DNA of 26,459 nucleotides from Bdellovibrionales bacterium (GCA_050250255.1 JBFWOZ010000043.1:1-26459), one strand, 5' to 3'; shown: positions 6,016 through 24,981, counted from the first letter of the stretch. Translations and numbers: made by a program. The notes: generated by a model from the sequence alone, not told the origin.

Positions 6016-6432
6016 TTAGGTCCTTGAAGTAGTTTCTCGACTCAATTGCTGAATTAAACTTTTGATTTCATCCCGCGTATTTCTAAATGCATCCAGTCTT
6101 TTTGCCTCATCATATTCTGGGTTTGCAGGATCTGAGAGATTCCAATTCAATTTTTTAGCCTTTGAGCTCACAACAGGACAACTCTCTTCGGCACATAAAG
6201 TAATAATTAAATCAAATGACTCCAAATTTAAATCATAAACTAATTTAGGATTTTGCTTGGAGATATCTATGCCGATCTCATTCATTACCTGTATCGCAAG
6301 TGAATGGGTCTGTGTTCCTGGTTTTGAGCCCGCGCTTTGAATGTTCGCACTACCAGCCAAAATTTGTTTCGCAAGTCCTTCTGCTATTTGGCTCCGAGCA
6401 GAATTTGCAACGCATAAAAATAGAATGTTCAT
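6016..6432 (-). CDS. arsC: Arsenate reductase, LMW-PTPase fold
   Basis: P-loop LFLCVANSARSQIAE, SAGS, TLCAEESCP resolving Cys pair, W.L.DP..F...RD.I; last gene of the ars-related operon. Confidence 0.88.
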   Translation of the reverse strand: MNILFLCVANSARSQIAEGLAKQILAGSANIQSAGSKPGTQTHSLAIQVMNEIGIDISKQNPKLVYDLNLESFDLIITLCAEESCPVVSSKAKKLNWNLSDPANPEYDEAKRLDAFRNTRDEIKSLIQQLSRETTSRT

Positions 6433-7112
6433 GGATTGTTTTGTCTAAGGTTGATGCTTTTAATCATAACTTCATATTGAGACTTTGAATCATCGCCGTC
6501 AACACTCAGCCACAGTGCAACGACATTAAGTGGAGTGTCGAATTTGATATCCATTTTAAAAAGCCCCTCGAGTTGCACTAGAGAGACTATTTTTTCATGG
6601 ATGAGGTCGGATTGGGGAGACACTCGTGACTTATTCAACAGATCCGGTCTATTTGTCACATTATAAAAAAATATCTTATTAATACCTTTATTGGGGGGCG
6701 CAAGTGAAAAAAGTTTTTTTACCCATGCTGGGGCAAACATTTTTTTTAACCCGGATAACGTTTGCTCCCCAGAAGTTACAAAACCTAGCCTAAGGATGGA
6801 ATCTTCGTCGAATGGAGTTATCTCAAGTTTTTTTATCCCATTAATTTCGGCGGACAATATGAAACCATAATTGTTTTGAGAAGACTCCAATTTATAAATA
6901 AGTGGGCCAGCAGATTTATTTACTTTTATATTGAGCCCTTTCATATCAAAGGCGACTTCATTCGACGGAATCTTTGAAAATGTGAGCGATGTCCATTTCG
7001 AGCTTTCTAAAAGTATACTCTCTCCAAAGGCTTCCCCAGGCATTAGCATCATCAGAAAAAGAGCTAAGTAAATAGACGATTCTTTTTTATTAAAAAAAAT
7101 GTTGAACACCAA
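6429..7112 (-). CDS. Hypothetical exported protein (possibly DUF3047-like); start uncertain
   Basis: Long ORF coupled to both neighbours, hydrophobic N-terminus, C-terminal WLSVDGDDS motif. The family call is tentative. Confidence 0.55.
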   Translation of the reverse strand: MVFNIFFNKKESSIYLALFLMMLMPGEAFGESILLESSKWTSLTFSKIPSNEVAFDMKGLNIKVNKSAGPLIYKLESSQNNYGFILSAEINGIKKLEITPFDEDSILRLGFVTSGEQTLSGLKKMFAPAWVKKLFSLAPPNKGINKIFFYNVTNRPDLLNKSRVSPQSDLIHEKIVSLVQLEGLFKMDIKFDTPLNVVALWLSVDGDDSKSQYEVMIKSINLRQNNP

Positions 7113-8391
7113 AACTCCAATTCATAGAATCAGTTTTAACAAGAGGCTTTGCAAAATCTAATCTCAATACAAAACGATAAAAATGAGGTAGAATAAGTCT
7201 TATTCCAGCTCCTAAACTTGCCGCTCTAACCATAAATAAATAGTGAGCATGCTCCCCAAAACCAGCAAAATCTATAAATGAAACCCCTTGGGTGATGATC
7301 GATGGTTGCTGAGAAATTACAAAACGAAATTCTGAATTGCTTAATGAGTAAAACCGGCCTGAAAATCTGTTATCAGAAAATCCTCTAAGGCGATCTAAAC
7401 CACCCAAATAGTATCTGTATTGAAAGATATCTGTAGATGTTGCACCTATCTGTATACGTTGTGCAAATTGTGTGCGAGTTGAAAGTGGGACATACAATAG
7501 ATATCCAATGTCACCTTGAGAGAAGTCACTGACTTCTCTCTTGAGGGGTAAAGCATAACCAATAGAGGTTGTGAGTTTATAACCAGATAACATATGCGAT
7601 TCGCCCTTAACTTGTCCGAATTCAATTCCTATTTTTGTAATCACCAGTTTTGTAGAAGGAGGCATCTCAAAGCCACTAGAATTTTTTTCTAATATGTTTT
7701 GAGGCAACTCTTCGGTTGAAAACTTGTCATAATTGTAATCCATGGAGACACGCCAAAGACTTGCGTCTTTAATCTCCTTAAAATAGTCGATATAAAATTT
7801 TTCTCGTTTGTGGAGAAAGCCAGCTTCAGGCACCGGATCATTTCTTTCAGAGTTGTAAATAGTGCGTATGCGACGAGTATTCCAATACTGAACATCAATG
7901 CCTTGCCTTTTTCCAAAGAGACGAGGGTTTTTGTACCAGATAACACCGGAGCTTATTCCAGCCAGATTTTCGTACTGAGTGCCAAGTTCAATAAATTTTC
8001 CCATTGCGTTGGGATCATAAACACCCAAAGTATATTGAGTTACACCGCCTCCAGAATTGATTTTAAATATTGGTATTGTTGTCCATTTTTCTTGAACCTT
8101 GATGGTAATATTAGTTTCTCTCAGGGAGTTGCTATTAACTACACTTTTGACATCCGTAAATAGACCCATACTACGGATTTTTTCAATTCCAGTCTCAATA
8201 TCTGTATTACAAGTATGAGTGCCCACTTTCAGATTAGACTCTCGAATAATCATTTCGCTTTGAGTTCTGTTATTGCCTTCAATACCTATGGCCTTAATAA
8301 AATGAGACTCTGAAGAAGGACAGTTCGCGTGACTCAATGTTGGGATTGCACAAACTATGCACAAAAAATATTTACAGAGCAAAGCCTTCAA
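7090..8391 (-). CDS. Omp85 (BamA/TamA-like) outer-membrane protein with one POTRA domain
   Basis: Signal peptide; POTRA IEGNNRTQ..IIRE..GLFTDV..VQEKW; barrel LGGLDRLRGF; terminal FGVQHFF. Confidence 0.85.
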   Translation of the reverse strand: MKALLCKYFLCIVCAIPTLSHANCPSSESHFIKAIGIEGNNRTQSEMIIRESNLKVGTHTCNTDIETGIEKIRSMGLFTDVKSVVNSNSLRETNITIKVQEKWTTIPIFKINSGGGVTQYTLGVYDPNAMGKFIELGTQYENLAGISSGVIWYKNPRLFGKRQGIDVQYWNTRRIRTIYNSERNDPVPEAGFLHKREKFYIDYFKEIKDASLWRVSMDYNYDKFSTEELPQNILEKNSSGFEMPPSTKLVITKIGIEFGQVKGESHMLSGYKLTTSIGYALPLKREVSDFSQGDIGYLLYVPLSTRTQFAQRIQIGATSTDIFQYRYYLGGLDRLRGFSDNRFSGRFYSLSNSEFRFVISQQPSIITQGVSFIDFAGFGEHAHYLFMVRAASLGAGIRLILPHFYRFVLRLDFAKPLVKTDSMNWSFGVQHFF

Positions 8392-9077
8392 GGTTCTGTT
8401 CCTCGTCTTTGTGCCTTAATCCAGTGTAAAAGTGCAATTTGTTTTTGGTTGGGGTTACTGAGTAGAGACAGAGACTCTTGAAGAGATTCGAGATCTTTAA
8501 TACTGTCCACATCAATTTGCGTGGGTAGGAATTTGACACTTCCGAAGTCTACGAGTTGAGAGGCAAGCTGAGAGCGTGTATCAGACAAGCTATACCGAAC
8601 GTTTGTCCAAACTTCTCTGGGCACTGACTTTTTTCCACCAAATAGATAAAAACCACCATCATCTGCTGGGCCAAGTACAAAATCGAATGTTCTAAGTCCT
8701 TCGAGAGCTTCTAAAAAAAGATTGGAAGTTAGTTGAGGTGAATCTGCGCCTACTACCAATACATTATTATAGCTTTCAAAGAGGGAATCATAAATATGAG
8801 ATAGGCGTTCACCTAGAGAACCCTCATTCTGGCTGATATTTCTAAATTCCTTCCACACGTTTACTTCTAATCCCTCTTTCTCTGCAATGGCCCAGTAGGG
8901 AGTAACGTTAGGTTTGGATTCACTCAATTGAGCGAGAGTTGATTGAATACATGAACAAGATATTAAATAAAACTGTTCTGCTAGACTTTTTCCAATTGAG
9001 TTTGCGAGGCGTGTTTTTATAGGAGAAAGCCCCGGCGTTTTTACAAACACAGCAATTGCAACTTTGGGTTGTTTCAT
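8388..9077 (-). CDS. TIGR04282 / DUF2064 family transferase (arsenosugar-cluster associated, CofC-like fold)
   Basis: VFVKTPG..KTRLA, Q.EGSLGERL, VGADSPQL, VLGPADDGGFYLFG, DVD..DL. Confidence 0.9.
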   Translation of the reverse strand: MKQPKVAIAVFVKTPGLSPIKTRLANSIGKSLAEQFYLISCSCIQSTLAQLSESKPNVTPYWAIAEKEGLEVNVWKEFRNISQNEGSLGERLSHIYDSLFESYNNVLVVGADSPQLTSNLFLEALEGLRTFDFVLGPADDGGFYLFGGKKSVPREVWTNVRYSLSDTRSQLASQLVDFGSVKFLPTQIDVDSIKDLESLQESLSLLSNPNQKQIALLHWIKAQRRGTEP

Positions 9078-9784
9078 TTTTCTTCCCGAGTCGTAATGTA
9101 TTTTAGCATTTCAGGCATGGCTTGCTTCAGAGTAAGATAACCATGAAGCAAAGTCGTTTTGCCCCAGCCATTGTCTCTATATTTTCTAGAGCTAGTTGAA
9201 ATTGTCGCTCCAGTGCAACGAAGTTTAAGGTTTGAATGCCTAACTTTCCAAACAAATAAATGATCTTCTCCATAGGGTGCTTTCTCACAAAATCCGCCAA
9301 CTAAATTAAAGCACTTTGTCGAAATACAAAACCCTTGATCACCAAAAGGTAAGCCTAATATATGTGATCTTATCCAAACTCCGAGTGAATTTAAGTTCAT
9401 TAATACAGGCCCATCATTTTGAAACAGTAGATTAAAATAAATCAACTCTTCGGGGTCGTCAGATAAAATATTTTGAAGTGAATCGATGGCTTTTTGACTC
9501 ACTCTAGAATCAGCGTGCAAAAACCACAAATAATCAGACTTCGAACTTCGGGCTCCGGCATTCATCTGATGTCCTCTGCCGATAGCTGATTGGACCCATT
9601 TGGTATTTTGTTTTTTATCGCACATCGTATCAAAATCTGTCGGTTTTTGTGGGCCTACAAAAATGATATTTGTTTCTTTTGGCAACACAGAGAGATCTTT
9701 AAATAAAATTCTCCACTGAGTTTCCTCAGGCGTGATTGGTATTATGACTGTGAGTTTGCGCATATTACTCAAAACCCGCTCCAT
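9074..9784 (-). CDS. TIGR04283 family GT2 glycosyltransferase
   Basis: VIIP, GRGHQMNAGA, LWFLHADS, LPFGDQG, ED, TSSRKY. The start may be ATG 9763. Confidence 0.9.
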   Translation of the reverse strand: MERVLSNMRKLTVIIPITPEETQWRILFKDLSVLPKETNIIFVGPQKPTDFDTMCDKKQNTKWVQSAIGRGHQMNAGARSSKSDYLWFLHADSRVSQKAIDSLQNILSDDPEELIYFNLLFQNDGPVLMNLNSLGVWIRSHILGLPFGDQGFCISTKCFNLVGGFCEKAPYGEDHLFVWKVRHSNLKLRCTGATISTSSRKYRDNGWGKTTLLHGYLTLKQAMPEMLKYITTREEK

Positions 9785-10630
9785 TTATTTTTTAAGCAGC
9801 GTAAGTAAGCTGAGTTTTTCGGGTGTTAGCGATGCTTTCTGCGTCAAAACGGATTGCCGAAGACTTGATCGGCAAGAGCATTGAGAATTATCGTTTAATT
9901 GCGAAATCGAGGATTTGATGACAGATTGAACACGTCCAATGTTTTTTCCGTAAAGCTCAAAGACTTTTTCAACACTCACATGTTGGGATGGATCATCAAG
10001 CCAGCAATCATAGTCAGTTGCCACAGCAATCGTGGCGTAACACATCTGTGCTTCTCGAGCTAAAAAGACCTCGGGCACGTTTGTCATTCCCACCAAATGC
10101 GCACCACTTTGCTTCAGAAATACACTTTCAGATTTAGTTCCGAGCCTTGGTCCTTCTACACACGCATAAGTTTTTTGGTCATGCAGATCGATGTCTATCG
10201 ACTTTGCAGACCTCATAATGACAGATCTTAGTCTTGGGCAAACCGGCTCAGCCGTAGAAATATGAGCGACCAAACCTTCACCAAAAAATGTTCTAGGTCG
10301 TATCCCTTTTGTAAAGTCGGTGTATTGGGATGGCAATGCGAGATCGCCGGGTTTTATTTCAAGCTCTAGACTTCCTACCGCAGAAACACTTAATATTTGC
10401 GTTACACCCATAGATTTTAAAGCCCAGATATTTGCACGAAAATTGATTTCGCTTGGCAAAAGCCCATGCTGAGAACCGTGTCTTGGAAGAAATGCCACCG
10501 TTCTATCTTGCAAGCGCCCTACAGTAATAGGTGCCGACGGCTCACCGAATGGTGTTTTGACATTCGACGTTTCAACGTGTTCGATACCATCCATTTTATA
10601 GAGACCAGTTCCGCCAATAATACCGATCAT
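9785..10630 (-). CDS. mtnP: S-methyl-5'-thioadenosine phosphorylase (MTAP) family nucleoside phosphorylase
   Basis: IGIIGGTG, TPFGEPS, FLPRHG..H, NFRANIWAL, EGPR, VGMTNVPE..LARE, TDYDCW. Confidence 0.93.
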   Translation of the reverse strand: MIGIIGGTGLYKMDGIEHVETSNVKTPFGEPSAPITVGRLQDRTVAFLPRHGSQHGLLPSEINFRANIWALKSMGVTQILSVSAVGSLELEIKPGDLALPSQYTDFTKGIRPRTFFGEGLVAHISTAEPVCPRLRSVIMRSAKSIDIDLHDQKTYACVEGPRLGTKSESVFLKQSGAHLVGMTNVPEVFLAREAQMCYATIAVATDYDCWLDDPSQHVSVEKVFELYGKNIGRVQSVIKSSISQLNDNSQCSCRSSLRQSVLTQKASLTPEKLSLLTLLKK

Positions 10631-10645
10631 AGACTTCCCCTTTTT

Positions 10646-11698
10646 TTAACAACAAGCGCCGAATGTATCAGACTTCACATTTTGGGTTATGGGACTTGCA
10701 CAGTCGAACAATCCAAAGTGCTGAGTGAGATCGCCAACAACTTTAAAATGAGAACTATATCTAGTATCTTTCAACATGGACGCTGTATTGCTGCAAACCA
10801 GATGTGCTTTGTTTTTCTCAAAAATGTGATGATCGTCCAAAGTAAATGCATTTGGATACTCTGGAATTGATCCTAAGTAGTAGGCGACTTGACCATAGTC
10901 TTCGCAGCGATCTTCAAGGTTAAGTTTGAATGCTCTGACGGTCATAGAATAAAAGTCAATTTTGCCGGCTTTTTTTTGTATGTCTTGGCTAATCAAGTCG
11001 ATCTTTGATGTTGAAATGGTTCTATAATCCGAACAGCCAAGTCGATTCAGCAATCTTCTAAAATCTTCGATATAAAGAGCTCCACCCAAGCACTCTCCGA
11101 TCAAGAGCTTATCCTCCGCGAGTTCCTTGGGAATACGACGACTTGAAAATACATCAGAAAAGTAGAGTTCTCCGCCAGGTTTTAGAACTCGAAAAATTTC
11201 AGAAAACACTCGTTCCTTACTTGGAGATAAGTTAATTACGCAATTTGATACGACAACATCAATTGAAGAAGACTTAATTCCAATTTCCTCAAGATCTTCA
11301 ATGTAGCCTTTTCTAAAAGTAATATTGGGTGCACTAAGTCCAAATCTCTGCGTGTGATAGTCGAGATGCTTTTTTGCCACGGCAATTTGTTCATCTGTCA
11401 TATCCACGCCAATAACATGTCCTCTTGGTCCGACAAGTTTAGACAATATAAAACAATCTCGTCCAGAACCGCTCCCGAGATCTAGTACGGTTTTACCCTC
11501 GAGTGATGATGGTATGGGTGAACCACAACCATAAAACTTATCTTTTACTTCATCGTGCACTTCTTTGAGGATATCTCTTAAGTGAACAGGCATGGATTCA
11601 GCTGTACAGCAGGCGCTTGTTTGCAGATCTTGATTCGTTTTTAAGGTCTTTCCGTAGTATTCTTTAACACTGTCAAGACCCTTTAAAGTTTGTTCCAT
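10646..11698 (-). CDS. arsM: Arsenite S-adenosylmethionine methyltransferase
   Basis: LQTSACC, FYGCG, LDLGSGSGRD, VSNCVINL and GECLGGAL (four conserved Cys motifs); AS3MT-like C-terminal domain ending GACC. Confidence 0.93.
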   Translation of the reverse strand: MEQTLKGLDSVKEYYGKTLKTNQDLQTSACCTAESMPVHLRDILKEVHDEVKDKFYGCGSPIPSSLEGKTVLDLGSGSGRDCFILSKLVGPRGHVIGVDMTDEQIAVAKKHLDYHTQRFGLSAPNITFRKGYIEDLEEIGIKSSSIDVVVSNCVINLSPSKERVFSEIFRVLKPGGELYFSDVFSSRRIPKELAEDKLLIGECLGGALYIEDFRRLLNRLGCSDYRTISTSKIDLISQDIQKKAGKIDFYSMTVRAFKLNLEDRCEDYGQVAYYLGSIPEYPNAFTLDDHHIFEKNKAHLVCSNTASMLKDTRYSSHFKVVGDLTQHFGLFDCASPITQNVKSDTFGACC

Positions 11699-11711
11699 AA
11701 AATTCTCCTAT

Positions 11712-12683
11712 TTAGTTTTTAGTTAAAGAGCCACCGCAGGAGCTACCAGCTCCCGCTGTACAAGCATAACAATGGTTTGCAAAAGTTATTTTGCCCTCAT
11801 TTAATTCGTTTAAAGAGGAAATATCCCAAATTGTTCTTCTTCCTGTACCGAGCGGAAGCTCAAGCATTTGATTAAAATCGCAGTCAAAAAGTTCGCCATT
11901 CCAAGCGACAGAAACAAGGGAGCGACACATAATTTCTTTCGCAGCTGCTGGATTAAAACTATTTGCCAGTAGATCCATGTATGTCTCAAGTTTTCCTGAG
12001 CGTTCAAGATCATGGAGAAACCGTTTAATTGGCATATTAGTAATTGTAAAGAGCTGATTAAATTCGATATCAAATAACTCTTTGAGTTCTTTTTTGTAAT
12101 CAGACTGAAGTTTGGATTGAGTCGGCGGAAGAAATGGGCCCGTTGGATTATAAACAAGATCAAGAGTTAGATCTGAGTTGACTTTTCCGTATCCAAGACC
12201 GTTTAGGACCTTTAGAGCCTCGATGCTTTTATTAAAGACATTGCGCCCTCGTTGTTTCTCAACATTCTCCTTTGAATAACAAGGAAGTGATGCCACGATG
12301 TGAACCTGATGGGCTTTTAAAAAATGTGCCGTCTCTTCTTGGCCTGGCTCAAAAAGTATCGTCAAGTTGCAGCGATCAATAACTTCCTTCCCAAGGGCTC
12401 GTGCGCTGGAAACCAGTTTGCGAAATCCAGGGTTGAGCTCGGGAGCTCCTCCGGTTACATCGACAGTTTTGATCGATGGTGAGTTTGCAAGGACTTCAAT
12501 AACTCTTGTGAGGGTTTCTTCGGTCATGTTTTCGGTGCGAATGGGGCTTGATTCAACATGACAGTGATGACATGCCTGATTGCACTTTCTGCCAATATTA
12601 ATTTGAAGTGTTTCCACTTTTTGACGTGTGAGTTGCAAACCGTTTCGCACGATCGTTTGATGAAATGGCATTATCCCCATCAT
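11712..12683 (-). CDS. arsS: Arsenosugar biosynthesis radical SAM protein (TIGR04167-type, DUF3641 C-terminus)
   Basis: CNQACHHCH CxxxCxxC, TGGAPELN, SLPCY, DCDFNQML, HCYACTAGAGSSCGG. Confidence 0.93.
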   Translation of the reverse strand: MMGIMPFHQTIVRNGLQLTRQKVETLQINIGRKCNQACHHCHVESSPIRTENMTEETLTRVIEVLANSPSIKTVDVTGGAPELNPGFRKLVSSARALGKEVIDRCNLTILFEPGQEETAHFLKAHQVHIVASLPCYSKENVEKQRGRNVFNKSIEALKVLNGLGYGKVNSDLTLDLVYNPTGPFLPPTQSKLQSDYKKELKELFDIEFNQLFTITNMPIKRFLHDLERSGKLETYMDLLANSFNPAAAKEIMCRSLVSVAWNGELFDCDFNQMLELPLGTGRRTIWDISSLNELNEGKITFANHCYACTAGAGSSCGGSLTKN

Positions 12684-13816
12684 ATGACTCCTCTTAAAAG
12701 TAAAAAACTAAGAAGGCCTAATAAGCTAGCAATCGGAAGTGTCACAACCCAAGCTAGAATAATTTTTAAAATAGAACCCCAGTGGGCCTGCTTAGTTACA
12801 GCTCCAATTCCAAATAGTGAACCGCAAGATACATGCGTCGTTGATACTGGAACTCCGATATGCGAGGCTCCTAGTACAATCGCGCTTGTCACAAGGTTTG
12901 CGGAAAAGGCCTGTCCGTCATTCATTTCTGTAATTTGAAAAGACATTGTGTCGGCTATTCGTCGGGACATGATAAGACCACCGATTCCAATAACAATACC
13001 TACGCCGCCAGTCGCGTTCATTCCACTGAAGTGTTGGCCTGCTAAAAGTAATGCCGCAATTTTTGGCGTGTCATTAAGGCCGCGAGCAAAACTGACAAGG
13101 CCTGAACTTATAAAATGGCCAAGATCTAAAACTTTCTTTGCATTGATTCCCCAGATTTTCCCGACATAGCGTTTTTCACAAGTGATTTGTGTGCCCACGG
13201 AAATCGTAGGAAAATTGGCAACACTTATCATGGCTGCTAAATTTCCATGGGGGACGTCAGCTGGAGCAGAAACAAGAACTTCGTTTCCAAGACACAGACA
13301 ACTTTCTCTTTCGACTTTAAAACGTTTCCGCATGCGACTTAATATCGGATAAATAGCTATTGCACCGGCTATGGCTAACAGTGGACTAATAATTAAGGGT
13401 AAAAAGAATGTTGAGACAAGTTGGCTAAAGTTAACTCCACTGGCTGAGGCAAATAGACCCGCGCCAACGAGCGCTCCAGTTATTGCGTGTGTGGTTGAAA
13501 TAGGAAATCCGAAACGAGTTGCAAGAAAAACGGTTGAAGCTGAAGCGAGGGCGACTGATGCTGTAAATGAACTTAATGCGACGACGTCCGCGGGCACGAG
13601 TCCTTTGCCTGAGAAATTGGCAATAAGTTTTTGTGCGAAGAAAAAGGCCACGGCAGAACCCAGAAGTGTTGTTATTGTGGCCCAGGAAAGAGCAATCTTA
13701 TAGGTAGTGGTTTTACTTCCTAGTAAAGTCGCGACTCCTTTGAAGTTATCGTTTGCTCCATTTGAAAAAGCAAGAAACAGAGCTGATAATAAAATTATCA
13801 TTGCTGCCAAACTCAT
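12680..13816 (-). CDS. Inorganic phosphate transporter (PiT family) with Cys-containing central loop
   Basis: NGANDNFKG, PISTTHAITG, ARGLNDTPK, PVSTTH. Start placed at ATG 13816 (GGAGG RBS, ATGA overlap). Confidence 0.9.
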   Translation of the reverse strand: MSLAAMIILLSALFLAFSNGANDNFKGVATLLGSKTTTYKIALSWATITTLLGSAVAFFFAQKLIANFSGKGLVPADVVALSSFTASVALASASTVFLATRFGFPISTTHAITGALVGAGLFASASGVNFSQLVSTFFLPLIISPLLAIAGAIAIYPILSRMRKRFKVERESCLCLGNEVLVSAPADVPHGNLAAMISVANFPTISVGTQITCEKRYVGKIWGINAKKVLDLGHFISSGLVSFARGLNDTPKIAALLLAGQHFSGMNATGGVGIVIGIGGLIMSRRIADTMSFQITEMNDGQAFSANLVTSAIVLGASHIGVPVSTTHVSCGSLFGIGAVTKQAHWGSILKIILAWVVTLPIASLLGLLSFLLLRGVI

Positions 13817-15954
13817 GACCTCCTCCATGCATGTAGTTTTTCAACAAATCTCAACAAATGAGCTGGTGCATTTGCTTTTTTCCAAATGCCAGCTGCATAT
13901 TTGTTCGCCTCTGAAAGAGTTGGATATATGTGTATCGTACTTAAAATTTTGTTCATACCAAAGCCGTGTTTCATTGCTGCGACGTACTCAGCGATGATAT
14001 CACCCGCATGGCTCCCAACAATGGTAACACCTAATATTTTGTCGCTGTTTTTTGGCGTTAGAACTTTTACAAAACCGTGATCCTCTTCGTCAGCAATTGC
14101 TCTATCAAGATCGTCAATGCCGTATTTTACGATTTGATAATCAATTTTTTTCTCGGTAGCTTCTTTTTCGTTGAGCCCGACACGGGCAACTTCTGGATCT
14201 GTGAACGTGCACCAAGGAATCACTCGATAATCAACTTTGAATTTTTTAAAAATACCAAAGAGGGCGTTGACTGATGCGAACCACGCTTGATGAGCTGCTG
14301 TGTGAGTGAATTGATAGGGGCCAGCAACATCACCGCAAACAAATATATTTGGGACATTTGTTCTTAAAAACGGATCATGTGCAATTGTTCCTCGAGATGA
14401 AATCTCAATGTTCAACTCCTCAAGCCCAAAACCCTTTACATTTGGTTTTCTTCCAAGCGCCAGCAAGACAGCATCAAATTCTACTTTTACTTCTCGACCT
14501 TCTTTTTCTAGGAGGATGTACTTTTGGTCATCTGATCTGTGAAAAGATTTTGCCTTGTGAGATGTAAGAACTTGAATGCCTTCTTTTTTAAATTTTTCGG
14601 TAACGATTTGAGAGACATCATCATCTTCTCGAATGAGTAACTGAGGGAGCATCTCGACAATGGTGACTTGCGAGCCAAATCTTTGAAAGCACTGTGCTAA
14701 CTCGCAACCGATAGGGCCTCCACCGAGTACAACCAATCTTTTTGGAAGTTCTCTAAGATTCCAGACAGTGTCGCTGGTGAGATAGCCAACATCATTTAAG
14801 CCTTGGATGGGCGGCACTAGCGGGCCTGCGCCCGTTGCCACTATAATTGACTTTGTCGTGAGGACTTTACCATTTACTTCAACGCGGTAGGGATCAACGA
14901 TTTTAGCAGCACCCGTTATGCATTCTACTCCAAGGCCTGAATAGCGTGAAATTGAGTCATGTGGTTCAATTTTTGTTATCACTCGTTGTACACGCTCCAT
15001 AACGTCCTTGAAATCAAAGTCCGCATGAGCGCTTTTAAAGCCAAATTCTTTTGCTCGATTAATATAAGAAAGCATTTTGGCTGAACGGATAAGTGCTTTG
15101 CTAGGCACACAGCCGGTGTTGAGACAATCTCCACCCATTTTGTGTTTTTCAATGAGAGCAACTTTAGCTTTTACGGCAGCCGCTATATAAGATGACACAA
15201 GCCCTGCTGAGCCACCACCAATGACAACTAAATTGTAATCAAATTTGTTTGGCTTTTTGTACTTTCGAAGAGCCTTTTGCTGCTTGAAATAGTTCACGAT
15301 AATTTTTGATATAAGAGGCAAAAAACCTATGATCGCAAATGAAATAAGAAGGCTTGGCGACAGAATGCCCTTGAGACTGGTGATCTGACTGAGTTGTGTG
15401 CCAGCATTTACAAATGCTGCTGTACCAGCAAGCATGCCCAATTGACTAACCCAAAAGAAATTGAGCGTGCTAATAGGTGTTAAGCCCATTACAAGGTTGA
15501 TAAGAAAAAATGGGAATACTGGCACTAGCCTCAACGTAAAAAGATAAAATACGCCATCTTTGCGAACGCCATCATCAAAGCTACGAAGTTTATCACCAAA
15601 TTTTGCTCTAACCGTATCGCGAAGAAGATAGCGAGATCCTAAGAAGGCGAGGGTGGCTCCGATAGTACTGGCAAAAGAAACAATAAGCGTTCCCCACCAA
15701 AAACCAAAAATAAGACCACCCGCAAGAGTGAGTATTGTAGCTCCTGGTACAGAAAATGCTGTTGCGGCCACATAAATCAAAAAATAGAGTCCAACAATTT
15801 GAATTGGATTTTCTAAAAAAACATTTTCAAGCAACTGCTGTTTTTCTTTTAGTGTTTCAAGTGTCAGATACTGGCCTAGATCATAGGACCTAAATATCAG
15901 TACTCCTATGACTAGGGCGGAAAGCACGAAAATCTTAGCTGAAATGCCCTTCAT
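13813..15954 (-). CDS. TVP38/DedA membrane domain fused to class-I pyridine nucleotide-disulfide oxidoreductase (MerA/Lpd-like)
   Basis: N-terminal SVPGATILTLAGGLIFG..LRLVPVFPFFLIN; then GGGSAG, GGDCLNTGCVPSK, GGGPIGCE, GDV. Confidence 0.93.
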   Translation of the reverse strand: MKGISAKIFVLSALVIGVLIFRSYDLGQYLTLETLKEKQQLLENVFLENPIQIVGLYFLIYVAATAFSVPGATILTLAGGLIFGFWWGTLIVSFASTIGATLAFLGSRYLLRDTVRAKFGDKLRSFDDGVRKDGVFYLFTLRLVPVFPFFLINLVMGLTPISTLNFFWVSQLGMLAGTAAFVNAGTQLSQITSLKGILSPSLLISFAIIGFLPLISKIIVNYFKQQKALRKYKKPNKFDYNLVVIGGGSAGLVSSYIAAAVKAKVALIEKHKMGGDCLNTGCVPSKALIRSAKMLSYINRAKEFGFKSAHADFDFKDVMERVQRVITKIEPHDSISRYSGLGVECITGAAKIVDPYRVEVNGKVLTTKSIIVATGAGPLVPPIQGLNDVGYLTSDTVWNLRELPKRLVVLGGGPIGCELAQCFQRFGSQVTIVEMLPQLLIREDDDVSQIVTEKFKKEGIQVLTSHKAKSFHRSDDQKYILLEKEGREVKVEFDAVLLALGRKPNVKGFGLEELNIEISSRGTIAHDPFLRTNVPNIFVCGDVAGPYQFTHTAAHQAWFASVNALFGIFKKFKVDYRVIPWCTFTDPEVARVGLNEKEATEKKIDYQIVKYGIDDLDRAIADEEDHGFVKVLTPKNSDKILGVTIVGSHAGDIIAEYVAAMKHGFGMNKILSTIHIYPTLSEANKYAAGIWKKANAPAHLLRFVEKLHAWRRS

Positions 15955-16221
15955 CTAGGCTCCCTTTTTCAATGAGTCTAATCCATCACGCTTGTTTAAA
16001 GCTGAGAGTTCCATATATCCGCCGATAAGCTCGTCGCCATTAAAGATTTGAGGCACAGTTCTCATTCCCGATCGGTGGCAGAGTTCTTTATACATCGCAT
16101 CGTCACCCTCACCTATAAGGATTTCCTCGTATGGGATTCCTCGCTGGTTAAGTAAAGATTTAGCTGCCTTACAGTAGGGGCAATAGTCTTTTGAATAGAT
16201 CACTACTTTTGCCACGGTCAC
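15955..16221 (-). CDS. grxC: Glutaredoxin 3
   Basis: CPYC active site, TVPQIF, IGG; RBS AGGAGG and GTG start. Confidence 0.9.
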   Translation of the reverse strand: MTVAKVVIYSKDYCPYCKAAKSLLNQRGIPYEEILIGEGDDAMYKELCHRSGMRTVPQIFNGDELIGGYMELSALNKRDGLDSLKKGA

Positions 16222-16236
16222 CTCCTAGCGACGCAA

Positions 16237-16266
16237 GTAAGTGATTATGCCTAACAAAACATTACA
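16237..16266 (-). promoter_or_regulatory. Putative ECF-sigma promoter driving the grxC..arsC operon
   Basis: Minus strand reads TGTAAT-gttttgttaggcataa(16)-TCACTTAC. Confidence 0.8.
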
Positions 16267-16295: not shown

Positions 16296-16325
16296 TGTAA
16301 TAAAGATGAAGCCAGTATCACTTAC
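16296..16325 (+). promoter_or_regulatory. Putative ECF-sigma promoter for the DUF547 gene
   Basis: TGTAAT-aaagatgaagccagta(16)-TCACTTAC. Confidence 0.8.
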
Positions 16326-17307: not shown

Positions 17308-18411
17308 TCAATCTAGAAATGAATTCATATAACGCTGATCGATCCAGTTTTTAATTTTCAATGACAGAGAGCTTTTAAAGTACACAGACCCAAAGATTAA
17401 AAGAGCTTGAGCACTGCCTGACACAAGAATATTGAGTTGTTTTTTGGAAGGTAGAAAGGGCAATATTTTATTTTTATTCAACACGGAGTCTAGATGTTTA
17501 GCCAAATACTGACCTTGGCGAACAGCGATAACCCCTGATTTTGCCAAATTAGGATACGATTTCATTTTGCTACAGTCCCCAGCAGCATAAATATTCGAAC
17601 TGCACCGAAGATAATCGTCCACAAGAAAATAGCCGTTGGAATCGACGTCAATTGATTGCTTAGAATTCCATTCGTGTGGTGTGATAGGGAGAGAGACAAA
17701 AACATAATCATACGAAAGTCGCTTACCATCTGTAAGTACAATCTCACTTTCGGGTATTGCCGTTAAATTTTCCTCATAGTGGATAACTATTCCGAGCGCT
17801 GCAGTCGCTCGCTCAAGTTCGGTCGATATTGCTGAAGTGTAATTTTCGCAAAGGCGATCCCCACGAGTTATAATGTGAACGCTGCTTCCTATCGAATTGT
17901 TATTTAGAAGTCTTAACTTAATGGCAATAGCAAGTTCCACTGATGCGGCCCCACCACCGACTATAACAAAATCTAAGCGTTGACATGAACTGCATATCCT
18001 TTGTACCTCACGCCACTGTTCAATAAAAGTCGGAAGTGGTTTTACGTATATCGTTCGAAAGGGAGCATTTGTTTGAAGACGTGTGGTCTCACCACCAGTA
18101 TTTATAATTAGATAATCGAATACAATTGAGTTGCCGTTTTGAAGATCAATTGCCTTCTTAGTAGGACTAATCGACTTGGCAGAGCTAATTATGAGATCTA
18201 CCCCTTTTGCTTTACAAAAAGTTGTCAGGTCTATAGTGAGTTCATCAATTTTGACTTCACCCATAATATGTCTGGGAAGAAGACCGGAATAGAATATTCT
18301 GTCGGATTCAGAAACAAGGACTATTCGGCATTTAGTTCTCGCGCTGGGACTTAGGTGTTTAATAACTTCGAGGTTTGCGTGCCCTGCGCCTAATAAGACA
18401 ATATTTTCCAC
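17308..18411 (-). CDS. FAD-dependent oxidoreductase (resembles the flavoprotein domain fused to SelD in some bacteria; NDH-2-like)
   Basis: LLGAGHAN, YSGLLP, VKP, VGGGAASVELA, IYAAGDC, KSGVIAVRQG, KNWIDQRYM. Confidence 0.82.
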   Translation of the reverse strand: MENIVLLGAGHANLEVIKHLSPSARTKCRIVLVSESDRIFYSGLLPRHIMGEVKIDELTIDLTTFCKAKGVDLIISSAKSISPTKKAIDLQNGNSIVFDYLIINTGGETTRLQTNAPFRTIYVKPLPTFIEQWREVQRICSSCQRLDFVIVGGGAASVELAIAIKLRLLNNNSIGSSVHIITRGDRLCENYTSAISTELERATAALGIVIHYEENLTAIPESEIVLTDGKRLSYDYVFVSLPITPHEWNSKQSIDVDSNGYFLVDDYLRCSSNIYAAGDCSKMKSYPNLAKSGVIAVRQGQYLAKHLDSVLNKNKILPFLPSKKQLNILVSGSAQALLIFGSVYFKSSLSLKIKNWIDQRYMNSFLD

Positions 18412-18531: not shown

Positions 18532-18561
18532 TGTAATAATAATTCACTCATAGTCACTTAC
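18532..18561 (+). promoter_or_regulatory. Putative ECF-sigma promoter for the CMD/AhpD pair
   Basis: TGTAAT-aataattcactcatag(16)-TCACTTAC, followed by the RBS AAGGAG. Confidence 0.8.
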
Positions 18562-19599: not shown

Positions 19600-20088
19600 C
19601 TACCAAATGGCATGCCATCCAGGCGGCACCAGATTCCATTTTTGACCGTATACATGAACTGATTTGGTCTCTCCGATTTTGTTGATTAAGCCTCGCCCAC
19701 TCTGAATCCAAAGTAACACTCCTCCCTTGAGGTTGTATGCATCGAAACCATCTTTTTTAAGATCAGATGCAAAACTGCCACTTCGATATCCAATTGTACA
19801 GTAGACCAATACTTTTTTATTTTTATAATTGTCTTTCTGATGGGAAAATTCTGATTTGGAGATTGAATTCTTAATGAACGAAACATTGCGCTCTTTCGGT
19901 TCACGAACGTCAACAATAATATAGCTGCTTAGTTCAATTAATTTGTCGTTAGGATCAATGATTGGAACAGATTTAAATTCCTTCTGATAATCATCAAACA
20001 TTGAATTAATTTTTTCAAGATCAGTCGGTTTCGCGTGGCAAATTAAAGCCATAAATACCAGTGTGCTGATAACAATATATCGGATCAT
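19600..20088 (-). CDS. Exported rhodanese-like protein
   Basis: Signal-like N-terminus, IVDVRE, VYCTIGYRS, YNLKGGVLLW, VHVYGQKW. Confidence 0.88.
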   Translation of the reverse strand: MIRYIVISTLVFMALICHAKPTDLEKINSMFDDYQKEFKSVPIIDPNDKLIELSSYIIVDVREPKERNVSFIKNSISKSEFSHQKDNYKNKKVLVYCTIGYRSGSFASDLKKDGFDAYNLKGGVLLWIQSGRGLINKIGETKSVHVYGQKWNLVPPGWHAIW

Positions 20089-21452
20089 AAATGGGTCTCC
20101 AGTTTATTTTGCCTGTTATTCAGATGCCACCAACCTGTTAGCGCAAAGAAAATAGTATATTCAGCAATTTTAAAATAGGGAGCCCAATCTTTTGAGTAGA
20201 ACCATGAGTAGCTTGCCACAACTAGATATGAAAACACAATCCATGGCGTGTGTCGTGTTAGACAAGCAAGGGGTAGGACCCATAAAACATACCAGGCATC
20301 AACAACTGGCGAAAGAATGAGCATTGCTCCTATGATTTGTAGGGTGGCAAGTGGGAGTTGATGTGCGTGGTTTAAAGTCTTTGTTCGTCGATATAATATA
20401 ACTGAGAAAATCACACCAACAGCCATTTTAGTTGTAAGCGCATTATCACTAAATAATTGAAGGACTAAATCCAAAAGGTGAAACACCCCTGCGTTGAACT
20501 GCCAGTAAGTGGCATATGCCTTTGTTCCACCAAAGACCTGCAAGCCAGCACCGATGAACGGAATATAAAATAGTAAAACTACCAGAAAAAATACTGTTAG
20601 ATTTTTTTTCCAACGGTTATCAAGTTTGATAAATAGCGGTACTAATATAATTGGAAAAAGCTTAGTGAGAGTTGCAAGAGCTAAAGTTACCCACGCTCTT
20701 AAGAACATACGTTTTTGACTCAGGAGGTAAACACTCAGAAACGTAAAAAATACGACTATGGTATCTAGGTGAGCTGAGTTTGAGACCTCTTTAAGGACTA
20801 AGGGATTTAGAAAATACAGGAAGCTTAAATTTTTGTTGCGGTTCGTAGATTCTAGCCACCTTACTAAAATCCACCAAATGCCAAGGTCGAAAAAGATAAA
20901 AACAATTTTGAGCCCAAAGAGTGAGTCACCAAAAACAATGTGGGAGAAAGTAAAAAAAAGCTGAGCCACAGGTGGGTAGATCGTCGAAAACTCTGGCCAA
21001 CCTATTTGGTTCCGATACGGCGTATTCAAAAAATCAAGCGCTGAATCATTTGGAGCAAATGTAAACGGGTTTACGCCACTTGCCAGCACCCTCCCATCCC
21101 ATAGGTATCGCCAATAGTCATTTTCAAGAACAGGTGTACTTGGGAGCAGAATAAGCCTACAAATTATTCCTGCCGCAAAAAGGAGTATAAAGTAAAGCCT
21201 GTCTTGCTTAACCATAACCAGCTTTCGACTGATTATTATGTATAAGGCAAATTGAATTGAGTACACCACCAGCAGTCCTAGAAATTCATGAGGCCAAATA
21301 GAAAGAAAATAGTACCCTGCGCAAGAGGCACAGAGTAGCGCTAATGGCAAAATCGAAGTTATCAACGATAAAATGGTAAAGCTCCTGTAATAATATGTCC
21401 CTTGTACACACTCACTCCCAAAGGATGCCCTAGATGGGTGACAGATGACCAC
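20085..21452 (-). CDS. GT87/DUF2029-like multi-TM GT-C glycosyltransferase; true start probably downstream (~21365)
   Basis: LENDYWRYLWDGRV...GVNPF, TIYPP, NPL...E...AHLD, KLFP, SPVV.AWY; many TM segments; ATGA coupling to the rhodanese gene. Confidence 0.82.
   Translation of the reverse strand: MVICHPSRASFGSECVQGTYYYRSFTILSLITSILPLALLCASCAGYYFLSIWPHEFLGLLVVYSIQFALYIIISRKLVMVKQDRLYFILLFAAGIICRLILLPSTPVLENDYWRYLWDGRVLASGVNPFTFAPNDSALDFLNTPYRNQIGWPEFSTIYPPVAQLFFTFSHIVFGDSLFGLKIVFIFFDLGIWWILVRWLESTNRNKNLSFLYFLNPLVLKEVSNSAHLDTIVVFFTFLSVYLLSQKRMFLRAWVTLALATLTKLFPIILVPLFIKLDNRWKKNLTVFFLVVLLFYIPFIGAGLQVFGGTKAYATYWQFNAGVFHLLDLVLQLFSDNALTTKMAVGVIFSVILYRRTKTLNHAHQLPLATLQIIGAMLILSPVVDAWYVLWVLPLACLTRHTPWIVFSYLVVASYSWFYSKDWAPYFKIAEYTIFFALTGWWHLNNRQNKLETHL
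21386..21415 (+). promoter_or_regulatory. Putative ECF-sigma promoter (variant) for GT2-marR
   Basis: TGTAAT-aatatgtcccttgtac(16)-ACACTCAC. Confidence 0.55.
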
Positions 21453-21463
21453 GAATCATTACG
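21434..21463 (-). promoter_or_regulatory. Putative ECF-sigma promoter (degenerate) for GT87-rhodanese
   Basis: Minus strand reads CGTAAT-gattcgtggtcatctg(16)-TCACCCAT. Confidence 0.45.
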
Positions 21464-21509
21464 TGGTAATTGTCGAAATTTCGTACTTACGCATTTTGAA
21501 GGGATTGTA

Positions 21510-22232
21510 TTGAGAGTTTCGATTGTAGTTCCAATTTTAAATGAAGTTAATCTGGTAAGCACTTGCTTAGGCTATCTTCAATCAACTCTAGCCGACCTAA
21601 GTCGAAGAAAAATCGGTCAGTGGGAAGTTGTGGTTTCGGATGCTGGTAGCACAGATGGCACCGTTAAACTCATCAATAAATTTATGACGAAAGAGAACTG
21701 GAAATTTGAAAAATCAAATATATCTCATCCTTCAATCGGAAAAACCATTAAACAAGGAATTCACGTAGCGACAGGTGATTATATTTGGATACTGCCTGTC
21801 GATACACGACTTCAAATTGATGCATTTGTGGATTTATGGGAAATAGTAAGCCACGATCATGCTGACTATATTGCTTTTCCAAAACTATATGCGCCGTCCA
21901 CAACTCTATTAAAACTCTATCAGTTTCTTCAAAATACAATAAGATTAAAACTTCTAAAGCATGTTGTGTGGACCAATGGAATTGTTCTTTCTAAGAGAAT
22001 ATTTGAAAGTTATGATGTGCCCACCGTAGGTTTTATGGAAGATGTCATTTGGTCGGACCAATTACGAAAAAAAATCCCTTTATTGATTTTAACTCATCCA
22101 ATAGAAGTGTCCACGCGTAGATATCATCCAAGCGGCATTCTTCGACAAATTTTCGTGAATTTTATAGTCATGTTGTTATATAGAATTCGGCTTGTGAAGC
22201 CGCAGAATTTGAAGACAATTTATAATAGGTAG
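21510..22232 (+). CDS. GT2 glycosyltransferase, divergent TIGR04283-like paralog
   Basis: VSIVVPILNE, DAGSTDGT, ILPVDT, FMEDV, VSTRRY. Start placed at in-frame TTG 21510 after GAAGGGA. Confidence 0.8.
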   Translation: MRVSIVVPILNEVNLVSTCLGYLQSTLADLSRRKIGQWEVVVSDAGSTDGTVKLINKFMTKENWKFEKSNISHPSIGKTIKQGIHVATGDYIWILPVDTRLQIDAFVDLWEIVSHDHADYIAFPKLYAPSTTLLKLYQFLQNTIRLKLLKHVVWTNGIVLSKRIFESYDVPTVGFMEDVIWSDQLRKKIPLLILTHPIEVSTRRYHPSGILRQIFVNFIVMLLYRIRLVKPQNLKTIYNR

Positions 22233-22797: not shown

Positions 22798-23412
22798 ATG
22801 GGGTTCTATATGAGTCGTCAGTTTGAAGATAATTTTAGTTCGACCGATTTTTTAGAAAAGTTGATTAACAAGGATCATAAGACAGTCGAACTTGTTGTGA
22901 AAGCATATACCGAACAACTTTACCGTGGAGCTCTTGGACTTGGATTCGATCAGGTACATGCTGGAGAAGTGGTTCAGAGTGTTTGGGTAACGTTTTTTGA
23001 TGTTGTTTCAAGTTTTCAGGGACGGTCGCACATTCGTACTTTTATTTTTGGAATTCTTTATAATAAGGCCTCAGAACTTCGACGTGAAAATAAAAAATTT
23101 GACTCAAAAGATCCAGTTGAAGAGGTTCTTGATGATCGATTCGATTTAAGAGGAGCTTGGAAGAAGCCACCCATCGACCCAGAGCAGTTTTTGATGGCAA
23201 GTGAAACAATGGAGCTTATAGACAAGTGTCTAGAAAAATTGCCTGTGAATCAGAGAATGGCATTTTGTTTAAAAGAAATTGATGACCACGGTAGTTCAGA
23301 TATTTGTAATATTTTGAGCGTTACCACCACTAACCTTGGAGTGCTTTTATATCGAGCAAAAAATAGCCTACGTGAGTGTATTGAAGCTAAGGCCAAGATG
23401 AGGCGCATCTAG
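22798..23412 (+). CDS. ECF sigma-70 family RNA polymerase sigma factor
   Basis: Region 2 EVVQSVW..FQGRSHIRTFIFGILYNK; region 4 CLEKLPVNQRMAF.LKE..ICNIL.VT..NL.VLLYRAK..LRECI. Start is 22798 or 22810. Confidence 0.93.
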   Translation: MGFYMSRQFEDNFSSTDFLEKLINKDHKTVELVVKAYTEQLYRGALGLGFDQVHAGEVVQSVWVTFFDVVSSFQGRSHIRTFIFGILYNKASELRRENKKFDSKDPVEEVLDDRFDLRGAWKKPPIDPEQFLMASETMELIDKCLEKLPVNQRMAFCLKEIDDHGSSDICNILSVTTTNLGVLLYRAKNSLRECIEAKAKMRRI

Positions 23413-23439: not shown

Positions 23440-23679
23440 GTGACGCCCTGTAAAGACATCGTAAAAATGCTTAGTTCGGGAGAACAGATTTCGTTCGTGA
23501 AGCGAATGGAAATGCGAATGCATCTTGCTATGTGTGAACATTGTTCCACATATGCAAAACAACTGCGAATGATGAGGGACTCGTTTATAAAACTTTTTAA
23601 GCAAAAGACAGAGGTCAAATCTGACCAGTTGGAGGAGCTTGAAAGTTCTATTATAGAGAAGTTCACCAAGGTAAAGTGA
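23440..23679 (+). CDS. Soluble zinc-finger (zf-HC2/ZAS) anti-sigma factor
   Basis: C4..HLAMCEHC (C-Xn-H-x3-C-x2-C), no TM segment, directly downstream of the sigma gene. Confidence 0.88.
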   Translation: MTPCKDIVKMLSSGEQISFVKRMEMRMHLAMCEHCSTYAKQLRMMRDSFIKLFKQKTEVKSDQLEELESSIIEKFTKVK

Positions 23680-23740: not shown

Positions 23741-23770
23741 TGTAATTTTATAACTGTAACTTTCACTTAC
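23741..23770 (+). promoter_or_regulatory. Putative ECF-sigma promoter for the yceI-bufferin operon
   Basis: TGTAAT-tttataactgtaactt(16)-TCACTTAC. Confidence 0.8.
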
Positions 23771-24436: not shown

Positions 24437-24691
24437 ATGAATAAAACGATCTTAGTCACAGCGGCTATCGCAGGTCTTGTATCGATTTCAGGCTGTAGCA
24501 GTTCACAAAAAGCGCAAGGTGAAACCGCCATGGGTGAGTGTCACGGAATTAACGCCTGCAAAGGGCAAGGAGAGTGTGGCGGTGCGGGCTACTCATGTGC
24601 TGGCAAGAATTCTTGCAAGGGTCAGGGTTGGGTTAAGTTAAGCAAATCAGATTGTGAAAATAAAAACGGTAAATTTAAAGCGTCCATGTAA
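24437..24691 (+). CDS. BufA2-like Cys-rich MNIO RiPP (bufferin) precursor, lipoprotein type
   Basis: Lipobox ISG-C; core CHGINACKGQGECGG...CAGKNSCKGQGWV..DC with 6 Cys. Confidence 0.82.
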   Translation: MNKTILVTAAIAGLVSISGCSSSQKAQGETAMGECHGINACKGQGECGGAGYSCAGKNSCKGQGWVKLSKSDCENKNGKFKASM

Positions 24692-24713
24692 ACCATAAAA
24701 AGGAGAGAAAAAG

Positions 24714-24980
24714 ATGATCCCGAACAAATCGCTACTAATTGCTTCTGCAATAGCTGGCCTCATTATGAGTGCTGGTCAAGTTCAAGCCAGCGATAACGAA
24801 AAGCCGAAGGCCGCTGTCGGCGAGTGTCACGGTGCAAATGCCTGCAAGGGCCAAGGTGCCTGTGGTGGAGCCGACCATGAGTGTGCCGGTAAGAACTCAT
24901 GTAAAGGCAAAGGCTTTGTGAAATTGACTAAAAAAGACTGCGCCAAAAAAGGCGGAAAGTTTCAACAAGCGAAAATGTAA
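24714..24980 (+). CDS. BufA2-like Cys-rich MNIO RiPP (bufferin) precursor, SPI-signal type
   Basis: Signal ending VQA; core CHGANACKGQGACGG...CAGKNSCKGKGFV..DC with 6 Cys; RBS AAGGAG. Confidence 0.85.
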   Translation: MIPNKSLLIASAIAGLIMSAGQVQASDNEKPKAAVGECHGANACKGQGACGGADHECAGKNSCKGKGFVKLTKKDCAKKGGKFQQAKM

Positions 24981-24981
24981 A

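Follow-up and report, generated by a model that had tools for sequence, protein, structure and literature searches.

An arsS operon of a Bdellovibrionales bacterium: candidates for three late steps of arsenosugar biosynthesis, among them a phosphorylase that is conserved but optional

Introduction

Which enzymes complete an arsenosugar once ArsS has acted? We asked this of a 26,459-nt stretch of DNA from a Bdellovibrionales bacterium (GCA_050250255.1 JBFWOZ010000043.1:1-26459), analysed whole and called the window below. Its genes at 8388-12683 encode the radical S-adenosylmethionine (SAM) enzyme ArsS, the arsenite methyltransferase ArsM, a phosphorylase of the MTAP family (mtnP) and members of the families TIGR04283 and TIGR04282/DUF2064, the two TRANSFERASES. 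Arsenosugars and arsenosugar lipids are among the major organic arsenic compounds of algae and seafood, according to the accessible part of PMC10456119. In the literature accessible to us, enzymes are assigned for the ArsM and ArsS steps only, and for every later step this operon offers a candidate that makes chemical sense, all within one 4.3-kb stretch of apparently cytoplasmic enzymes.

We propose, with a probability of roughly 0.55, that these five genes are the core of an operon encoding all the steps that lead from arsenite to an arsenic riboside. ArsC, glutaredoxin and a flavoprotein of the same operon would supply As(III), ArsM would methylate it and ArsS would form 5'-deoxy-5'-dimethylarsinoyl-adenosine (DDMAA), as in cyanobacteria. 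MTAP would then convert DDMAA and phosphate to adenine and alpha-arsenoribose-1-phosphate, DUF2064 would turn the latter into an alpha-nucleoside diphosphate (NDP)-arsenoribose, and the TIGR04283 glycosyltransferase of family GT2, an inverting enzyme, would move the arsenoribose to an alcohol acceptor to give a beta-riboside. That MTAP acts on DDMAA is probable and that the GT2 uses an NDP-arsenoribose donor is fairly likely, while the chance that DUF2064 nucleotidylates the sugar phosphate, with GTP by analogy with CofC, is put only slightly above even. For the acceptor, our guesses from the structures of natural arsenosugars are glycerol, glycerol phosphate or the phosphatidylglycerol head group.

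The late steps fit each other in two ways. First, DUF2064 would need a phosphorylated substrate and the MTAP product is one. Second, phosphorolysis gives an alpha-ribose-1-phosphate and from it an alpha-NDP-sugar, from which an inverting GT2 makes a beta-riboside. Since natural arsenosugars are beta-D-ribofuranosides (Table 3 of PMC10456119, itself available in part), the stereochemistry fits the pathway. An earlier note on this DNA had read the three late genes in this way, and that interpretation gains support from the co-occurrence of the genes, the separate clade of the phosphorylase, and the predicted CofC-like fold and aspartates of DUF2064. The same note had called these steps poorly defined. 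In the accessible literature we found no paper assigning adenine removal, activation or transfer (most subscription literature, the primary ArsS papers and their supplements lay outside the search). The link of the two transferases to arsenosugars is already curated: NCBIfam labels both TIGR04282 and TIGR04283 "arsenosugar biosynthesis glycosyltransferase", and the accessible text of a genome paper (PMC13077682) repeats the arsenosugar label.

Results

A five-gene core within an eleven-gene run

Eleven genes run on the minus strand from 6016 to 16221, in the order grx, DedA-flavoprotein, Pit, arsS, arsM, mtnP, TIGR04283, TIGR04282, Omp85-like, hypothetical and arsC, and neighbouring genes all abut or overlap (Table 1). 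The contiguity of arsS, arsM, mtnP, GT2 and DUF2064, as described in the earlier note, was confirmed: there are five minus-strand open reading frames (ORFs), of which the first four lie 13, 15 and 0 nt apart and the last two overlap by 4 nt. The run extends past this core by three genes on either side. The five-gene order is not due to chance, because it was found again in other genomes, with one ORF inserted at some loci.

ArsS and ArsM resemble the known first two enzymes

The cysteines of the CxxxCxxC motif of ArsS (C34, C38 and C41) and four C-terminal ones (C253, C268, C305 and C308) are invariant among 33 aligned sequences, and C316 is nearly so. It is likely, from its sequence, that the predicted ArsS adenosylates dimethylarsenite to DDMAA. 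In the accessible part of PMC13598754, ArsS turns dimethylarsenite, DMAs(III), into DDMAA and the adenosyl group is retained in the product. ArsM matched the arsenite methyltransferase structures PDB 5EVJ (E 2e-106 over residues 10-339) and 4KW7/4FR0 (E 9e-93). It contains C30, C58, C153 and C203, which we take to be the arsenic-binding cysteines. Its scores fall below the NCBIfam cut-offs of PRK11873 (195.5 against 263) and AsSugarArsM (110.3 against 400), which places it, by sequence, outside the cyanobacterial AsSugarArsM subtype.

The arsM-arsS arsenosugar pathway of Synechocystis sp. PCC 6803 was reportedly described by Xue et al. 2019 and Cheng et al. 2021. The Synechocystis arsenosugar work is cited in the accessible parts of bioRxiv 2022.09.23.509062, PMC8552651, PMC12159101 and PMC13598754. 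The window shares with that system the adjacent arsM and arsS, an ArsS above the TIGR04167 cut-off and all conserved cysteines, and the first two steps are expected to be the same. Unlike in Synechocystis, the phosphorylase, the two transferases, ArsC, Pit, Grx and the DedA-flavoprotein lie in the same operon here, the order is arsS-arsM, ArsM scores low on AsSugarArsM, and the host, judged by its best relatives, looks like a non-photosynthetic member of the Bdellovibrionota.

DUF2064 looks like a nucleotidyltransferase and TIGR04283 like a GT2 enzyme

The predicted model of DUF2064 is confident (pLDDT 96.9). Its closest structure is the uncharacterised 3CGX (Z 26.1), followed by CofC/FbiD (Z 21.8, 19.8 and 18.7; root-mean-square deviation 2.2-2.8 over 186-196 residues), against Z 14.6 or less for IspD, GlmU and true glycosyltransferases. 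D112, D189 and D191 are invariant among 44 sequences and align with the FbiD aspartates, which, according to the accessible part of PMC6450877, hold the substrate phosphate via two Mg ions. The CofC-like fold proposed in the earlier note is thus borne out by the model and by the aligned catalytic aspartates. Given this fold and the three-aspartate site, the modelled DUF2064 resembles a nucleotidyltransferase with a phosphorylated substrate, and not a glycosyltransferase as in its NCBIfam name. The fold, a K-x-R-L motif and three metal-binding aspartates are common to DUF2064, CofC/FbiD (2I5E, 6BWG and 7P97) and 3CGX; DUF2064 differs from CofC/FbiD by identities of only 13-21% and by the lack of F420 genes in the operon. 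It also misses the CofC family cut-off (TIGR03552, 27.7 against 105) and works like CofC at most, not being a CofC member.

In the TIGR04283 protein, D92, R139 and E173 are invariant and a GDQG motif nearly so (46 sequences), HAD replaces DXD, and an ED is conserved. A profile of the family matched GT2 structures (best E 2e-14), while a single-sequence search of the PDB was uninformative, and hydropathy indicated no transmembrane segment in this protein. At 16 loci, of which two were counted twice, a single open frame spans both genes; at 52 the genes are adjacent but separate.

The resemblance to CofC/FbiD, the closest characterised folds (GlmU reaches only Z 13.1), fits another use of DUF2064, in which MTAP would act as proposed but DUF2064 would activate the acceptor, a glycerol phosphate or phospho-acid, and the pair would couple it to arsenoribose-1-phosphate in the manner of CofC and CofD. 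Phosphate-type arsenosugars do exist (PMC10456119, accessible part). The TIGR04283 protein, with its conserved HAD/GDQG/ED signature, is GT2-like all the same; Pfam and NCBIfam family scans found no CofD-like gene in the operon, and no other source of NDP-arsenoribose is evident. Enzymes with a GT2 signature normally need an NDP-sugar donor. We consider acceptor activation quite unlikely.

The phosphorylase belongs to a clade of its own

The window MTAP is the only one above the TIGR01694 cut-off in the genome. Its predicted model has the MTAP fold, with Foldseek top matches that were all MTAPs (TM 0.8-0.86). Phosphate-site residues R50 and H51 are invariant, T183 corresponds to human T197, and the adenine-recognising D206 and D208 (human D220 and D222) are kept; fold, phosphate residues and Asp pair are common to known MtnP/MTAP structures (PDB 1CB0, 1V4N, 2A8Y and 4GLF). 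Enzymes of the window type differ from canonical MtnP by four substitutions, a longer loop and a separate clade, and are usually not beside mtnA. Relative to human MTAP, the substitutions (I172V, F177L, S178G and I194V) are all to smaller residues, window L163 and G164 aligning with human F177 and S178, and the loop after the DYDCW motif is two residues longer than in canonical MTAPs of the same phylum. The accessible part of PMC5738077 lists human F177 and S178 as active-site residues, with F177 contacting the purine, and I194 as a docking contact. We infer that the smaller residues would give a roomier pocket, suiting AsMe2(O) instead of SMe.

Among 166 sequences, residues 158-164 of the MTAPs linked to the cluster read V[ED]GPRLG (G164 in 106/106, L163 in about 98%), and canonical MTAPs carry GPxFS there (59/59). 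Because eighty of the loci had been chosen by similarity to the query, we recounted on 88 MTAP-like sequences chosen without it: 22 GPRLG-type sequences were cluster-linked and 2 unlinked, against 1 and 57 for the canonical type, with 6 other sequences, many of the unlinked loci having flanks of 1.5 kb only. An earlier tree had used long-branch rooting and had modest support; a repeat with 73 of the 198 rows gave a branch with an SH-aLRT value of 99 that has all 36 GPRLG rows on one side. With its GPRLG motif and its place in a clade apart from mtnA-linked MTAPs, the window enzyme is not a canonical housekeeping MtnP; its closest relatives are from Bdellovibrionales. The idea that arsS-linked MTAPs form their own clade therefore stood as to the separate clade, on both branch support and motif, and failed as to its being exclusive to arsenic clusters (see below).

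Two markers were set aside. The MTAP bit score separated linked enzymes within the order, 6 of 6 above the cut-off being linked. It did not do so across the phylum, since canonical MTAPs have the higher scores there, and motif and tree took its place. Genomes described below ruled out the use of GPRLG as proof that an MTAP is specialised for arsenic. Also, a role as S-adenosylhomocysteine phosphorylase is not favoured, because the host has AhcY. Two rows of the tree come from genomes flagged as unpublished, G227 (locus L139, also one cluster example) and G533 (locus L113, also one of the five Steroidobacteraceae-type genomes below); no conclusion rests on either.

MTAP accompanies arsS across genomes

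In 201 genomes of the host phylum, we found arsS in 43, MTAP in 107, TIGR04282 in 58 and mtnA in 102. MTAP occurs in all 43 arsS-positive genomes and in 64 of the 158 arsS-negative ones, which answers the co-occurrence check suggested in the earlier note, and TIGR04282 occurs in 39 of the 43. We give counts since related genomes are not independent and Fisher p-values overstate. A sharper test comes from the 99 genomes without MtnA, because there the sugar phosphate from 5'-methylthioadenosine (MTA) or 5'-deoxyadenosine cannot enter salvage. In these, MTAP is present in 12 of 12 arsS-positive genomes (9 families) and in 3 of 87 arsS-negative ones, and one of the three (G223) carries an MTAP-TIGR04283-TIGR04282 trio at a contig edge. 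This retention of MTAP independent of MtnA is a genomic reason to consider DDMAA first among possible substrates. In a control genome, Synechococcus elongatus, arsS, MTAP and TIGR04282 were all above their cut-offs.

Gene neighbourhoods were compared at 50 arsS loci from 47 genomes (10 from the first set and 40 of 42 further places). Within 5 kb of arsS we found TIGR04282 at 27, TIGR04283 at 25, arsM at 24 and MTAP at 17. When clusters are split, MTAP goes with the transferases: among 20 MTAP loci taken from outside the arsS neighbourhood, 7 have it directly before both of them. In each of three genomes (G005, G036 and G179), the cluster contains one MTAP and a second, canonical MTAP lies outside it; in G036 and G179 this second gene adjoins mtnA. 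Together, these data suggest that MTAP tracks the pathway more than salvage.

Several observations weigh against the proposed route. First, the dedicated phosphorylase also occurs where the cluster is absent: of 5 Steroidobacteraceae-type genomes tested (completeness not given), 3 have a GPRLG MTAP with mtnA and without arsS, the sister of ArsS described below or DUF2064, and two genomes found after the tally of 88 sequences, G129 and G137, have a GPRLG MTAP without arsS, in G137 beside mtnA. Such enzymes outside the cluster mean that the motif is no proof of an arsenic-only enzyme. Second, the cluster is often found without the phosphorylase: linked MTAP is present at only the 17 loci given above, and among the 27 with a transferase gene it is present at 15 and absent from 12. 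Third, mtnA is commoner in arsS-positive genomes (31/43 against 71/158), and 3 of the 12 arsS-positive genomes without mtnA use a canonical MTAP. Fourth, in 301 Pseudomonadota genomes, the window protein found an MTAP at E<=1e-45 in 74 of 105 with arsS, and MTAP adjoins arsS at 1 of 50 loci fetched from that sample, where it is canonical; 5 of the remaining 31 arsS-positive genomes were checked and all had a more distant phosphorylase-family gene only. Fifth, CofC substrates are small acids (phosphoenolpyruvate and 3-phosphoglycerate), not sugar phosphates.

The first two of these points, the enrichment of mtnA in arsS-positive genomes, and the fact that the window MTAP is the sole one of its host above the cut-off would suit an enzyme that only clears 5'-deoxyadenosine and MTA to recover adenine, while the adenine of DDMAA is lost through a hydrolase or by direct transglycosylation by the GT2. 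Against this stand the MtnA-less genomes, in which the presence of MTAP tracks that of arsS even though the arsS-negative ones presumably run other radical SAM enzymes, and the split clusters, in which it does not go with the radical SAM gene. The host also has a separate locus for aldolase, mtnA and PNP: a gene of the PNP family overlaps its mtnA, and a class II aldolase gene lies close by on the same contig (L425, G000:C22:25082-28222). Also, the ArsS product retains the adenosyl group (PMC13598754, as far as accessible). We therefore hold salvage alone to be unlikely.

We read the distribution as a phosphorylase needed wherever ArsS is, and often supplied by a dedicated clade that still handles ordinary substrates; the dedicated GPRLG MTAP probably still cleaves MTA and 5'-deoxyadenosine. 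The dedicated MTAP is optional, since in many arsS genomes the sole MTAP is a canonical one at another place. Where it is missing, a housekeeping phosphorylase likely does the step.

Two loci deserve separate mention. At L176 (G193:C10), in a genome without mtnA, a canonical-type MTAP lies directly 3' of arsS, apparently an independent recruitment of a phosphorylase. The host locus L425 occupies the slot of the canonical MTAP of its relatives, where salvage may go via PNP instead of MTAP.

The late genes also accompany a sister of ArsS

In Neptuniibacter, Motiliproteus and others, an unnamed radical SAM enzyme (for example L143:7053-7961 (+)) has a GPRLG MTAP and the transferases on its flanks. 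This enzyme shares 26% identity with ArsS across 143 residues, and the two profiles align over 273 columns with a probability of 99.2, C-terminal cysteines included. This sister family is present in 21 of the 301 Pseudomonadota genomes, none of which has arsS (0/21). At 44 of 80 metagenome loci, those of at least 4 kb, TIGR04283 was found at 41, TIGR04282 at 36, arsM at 10 and MTAP at 6. A protein search with the sister gave 3368 matches at E<=1e-20, and among the names shown in the best 120 none was ArsS or indicated an arsenic function.

The company that these genes keep also bears on whether arsenic is their substrate. The module could make a non-arsenic 5'-substituted riboside containing S, Se or Sb, with arsenic as a side activity. 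The presence of arsM within 5 kb of arsS at only 24 of 50 loci would fit this, as would the naming of ArsS as a (seleno)protein by NCBIfam and a gene elsewhere in the window whose product resembles the SelD N-terminal domain family (Table 1). On the other side, the operon has a full-length ArsM and an ArsC-like gene, arsM accompanies the sister radical SAM family too, and ArsS chemistry on DMAs(III) is published (PMC13598754, available in part). A non-arsenic product is improbable in our view.

Flanking genes and the promoter-like motif

Table 1. Features of the window discussed in the text, with family scores in bits (cut-offs in brackets).
Feature	Position	Strand	Evidence
ArsC-like arsenate reductase, LMWPc fold, last gene	6016..6432	-	TIGR02691 113.7 (174.3); PF01451 76
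Conserved hypothetical protein	6429..7112	-	no Pfam or NCBIfam match
Omp85/POTRA outer-membrane protein, single POTRA	7090..8391	-	PF01103 + PF07244
TIGR04282/DUF2064, CofC/FbiD-like nucleotidyltransferase (predicted)	8388..9077	-	TIGR04282 132.4 (134); DUF2064 75.4 (25.8)
TIGR04283, GT2 (GT-A) glycosyltransferase (predicted)	9074..9784	-	TIGR04283 180.8 (182); PF00535 27.2 (23.3)
MTAP-family phosphorylase, GPRLG clade (mtnP)	9785..10630	-	TIGR01694 299.8 (274.85)
ArsM arsenite methyltransferase	10646..11698	-	matches solved arsenite methyltransferase structures
ArsS radical SAM enzyme	11712..12683	-	TIGR04167 454.5 (300); DUF3641 (PF12345 187)
Pit/PHO4-family anion transporter	12680..13828	-	PF01384 203
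VTT/DedA membrane domain fused to FAD disulfide oxidoreductase	13813..15954	-	PF09335 + PF07992 + PF02852
Glutaredoxin, first gene	15955..16221	-	PF00462 67.4; TIGR02181 87.1 (90)
Promoter-like motif TGTAAT-N18-ACTTAC, head of operon	16237..16266	-	4 exact copies in window
SelD N-terminal domain family-like protein	17308-18411		
Rhodanese-like gene, 455-aa membrane protein, second TIGR04283-like GT2	19600-22232		GT2, 101
Weaker copy of the motif	21386-21415		
ECF sigma gene	22798-23412		
Anti-sigma-family gene	23440-23679		
Bufferin cluster	24437-26459		two BufA2 precursors, MNIO maturase, HvfC-like

Several flanking genes recur near arsS at the 50 loci: the DedA-flavoprotein gene within 5 kb at 15, Pit at 13, the hypothetical gene at 7, mostly 3' of TIGR04282, and the ArsC-like gene at 6. 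The Omp85-family gene between TIGR04282 and the hypothetical gene had no match at any related locus. Glutaredoxin is likely the reductant for ArsC or ArsM, the Pit/PHO4 transporter would take up phosphate or arsenate, and, more speculatively, the DedA domain hints at a lipid product.

Nucleoside phosphorylases accept arsenate. With a Pit transporter and a glutaredoxin in the operon, MTAP could thus aid arsenate reduction by arsenolysis, giving ribose-1-arsenate that a thiol then reduces, with arsenite passing to ArsM. However, the operon has its own ArsC-like gene, and MTAP travels with the transferases and not with arsC or arsM, which makes such a role highly improbable.

The motif TGTAAT-N18-ACTTAC has exact copies at 16237-16266 (-), 16296-16325, 18532-18561 and 23741-23770 (+), all just 5' of operon heads (grx, DUF547, the ahpD pair and the yceI-bufferin operon), against a chance expectation in the window of 0.13 even allowing 1 mismatch. 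The genome has 7 copies, each before these genes or their paralogues and all with a spacer of 18; none with a spacer of 16, 17, 19 or 20 was found in the genome. Six further copies were found in 425 fetched loci: L059 (two copies), L178 and L187 have the motif at the head of the cluster, and in G418 it precedes arsS, a copy that two overlapping loci both contain. The window also encodes an extracytoplasmic function (ECF) sigma factor, which likely reads this motif, and an anti-sigma-family protein. A SigF-type promoter pattern gave 1 match against 0.52 expected by chance and was dropped in favour of the motif above, which had been derived from the sequence itself. Table 1 also lists a weaker copy of this motif.

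The contig has a GC content of 0.403 against a median of 0.439, and paralogues of the grx, DedA-flavoprotein, DUF547 and rhodanese/GT2 genes lie on three short contigs (C77, C88 and C90; 49-78% identity). The low GC and the paralogues together suggest that this region is an island. The paralogues may belong to a second, related island that is unassembled; the rhodanese-like gene, the membrane protein gene and the second GT2 gene have their copies on C77 and C90. In the bufferin cluster, a single in-frame TAG at 25276-25278 splits the MNIO gene into ORFs of 98 and 172 aa, either a nonsense change or an assembly error.

Discussion

The operon is real and belongs to a kind already known. Its phosphorylase is conserved though optional, and, judged by sequence, the candidate three-step completion of arsenosugar synthesis is well supported. 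Of the NCBIfam "arsenosugar biosynthesis" set (TIGR04167, TIGR04282, TIGR04283 and TIGR04169), three core families are common to the window, and TIGR04169 was not found in it. Our reading departs from that annotation for TIGR04282, named a glycosyltransferase there while fold and active site here indicate a nucleotidyltransferase, and for MTAP, which has just the generic TIGR01694 name.

More tentatively, and at somewhat less than even odds, the five genes may form a complete minimal pathway to arsenosugars or arseno-phospholipids via a new activated sugar, NDP-5-dimethylarsinoyl-ribose, with a retuned phosphorylase clade and the first sugar-activating member of the CofC fold. Its late trio would serve the ArsS sister as well, and many heterotrophs and predators among the bacteria would make arsenosugars, under the control of a metal-stress sigma factor that switches on the pathway together with bufferins.

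If the proposed route is true, DUF2064 would gain a function and its glycosyltransferase label in the database would need correcting. The likely producers of arsenosugars would then widen to the Bdellovibrionota and to bacteria with the unnamed ArsS sister.

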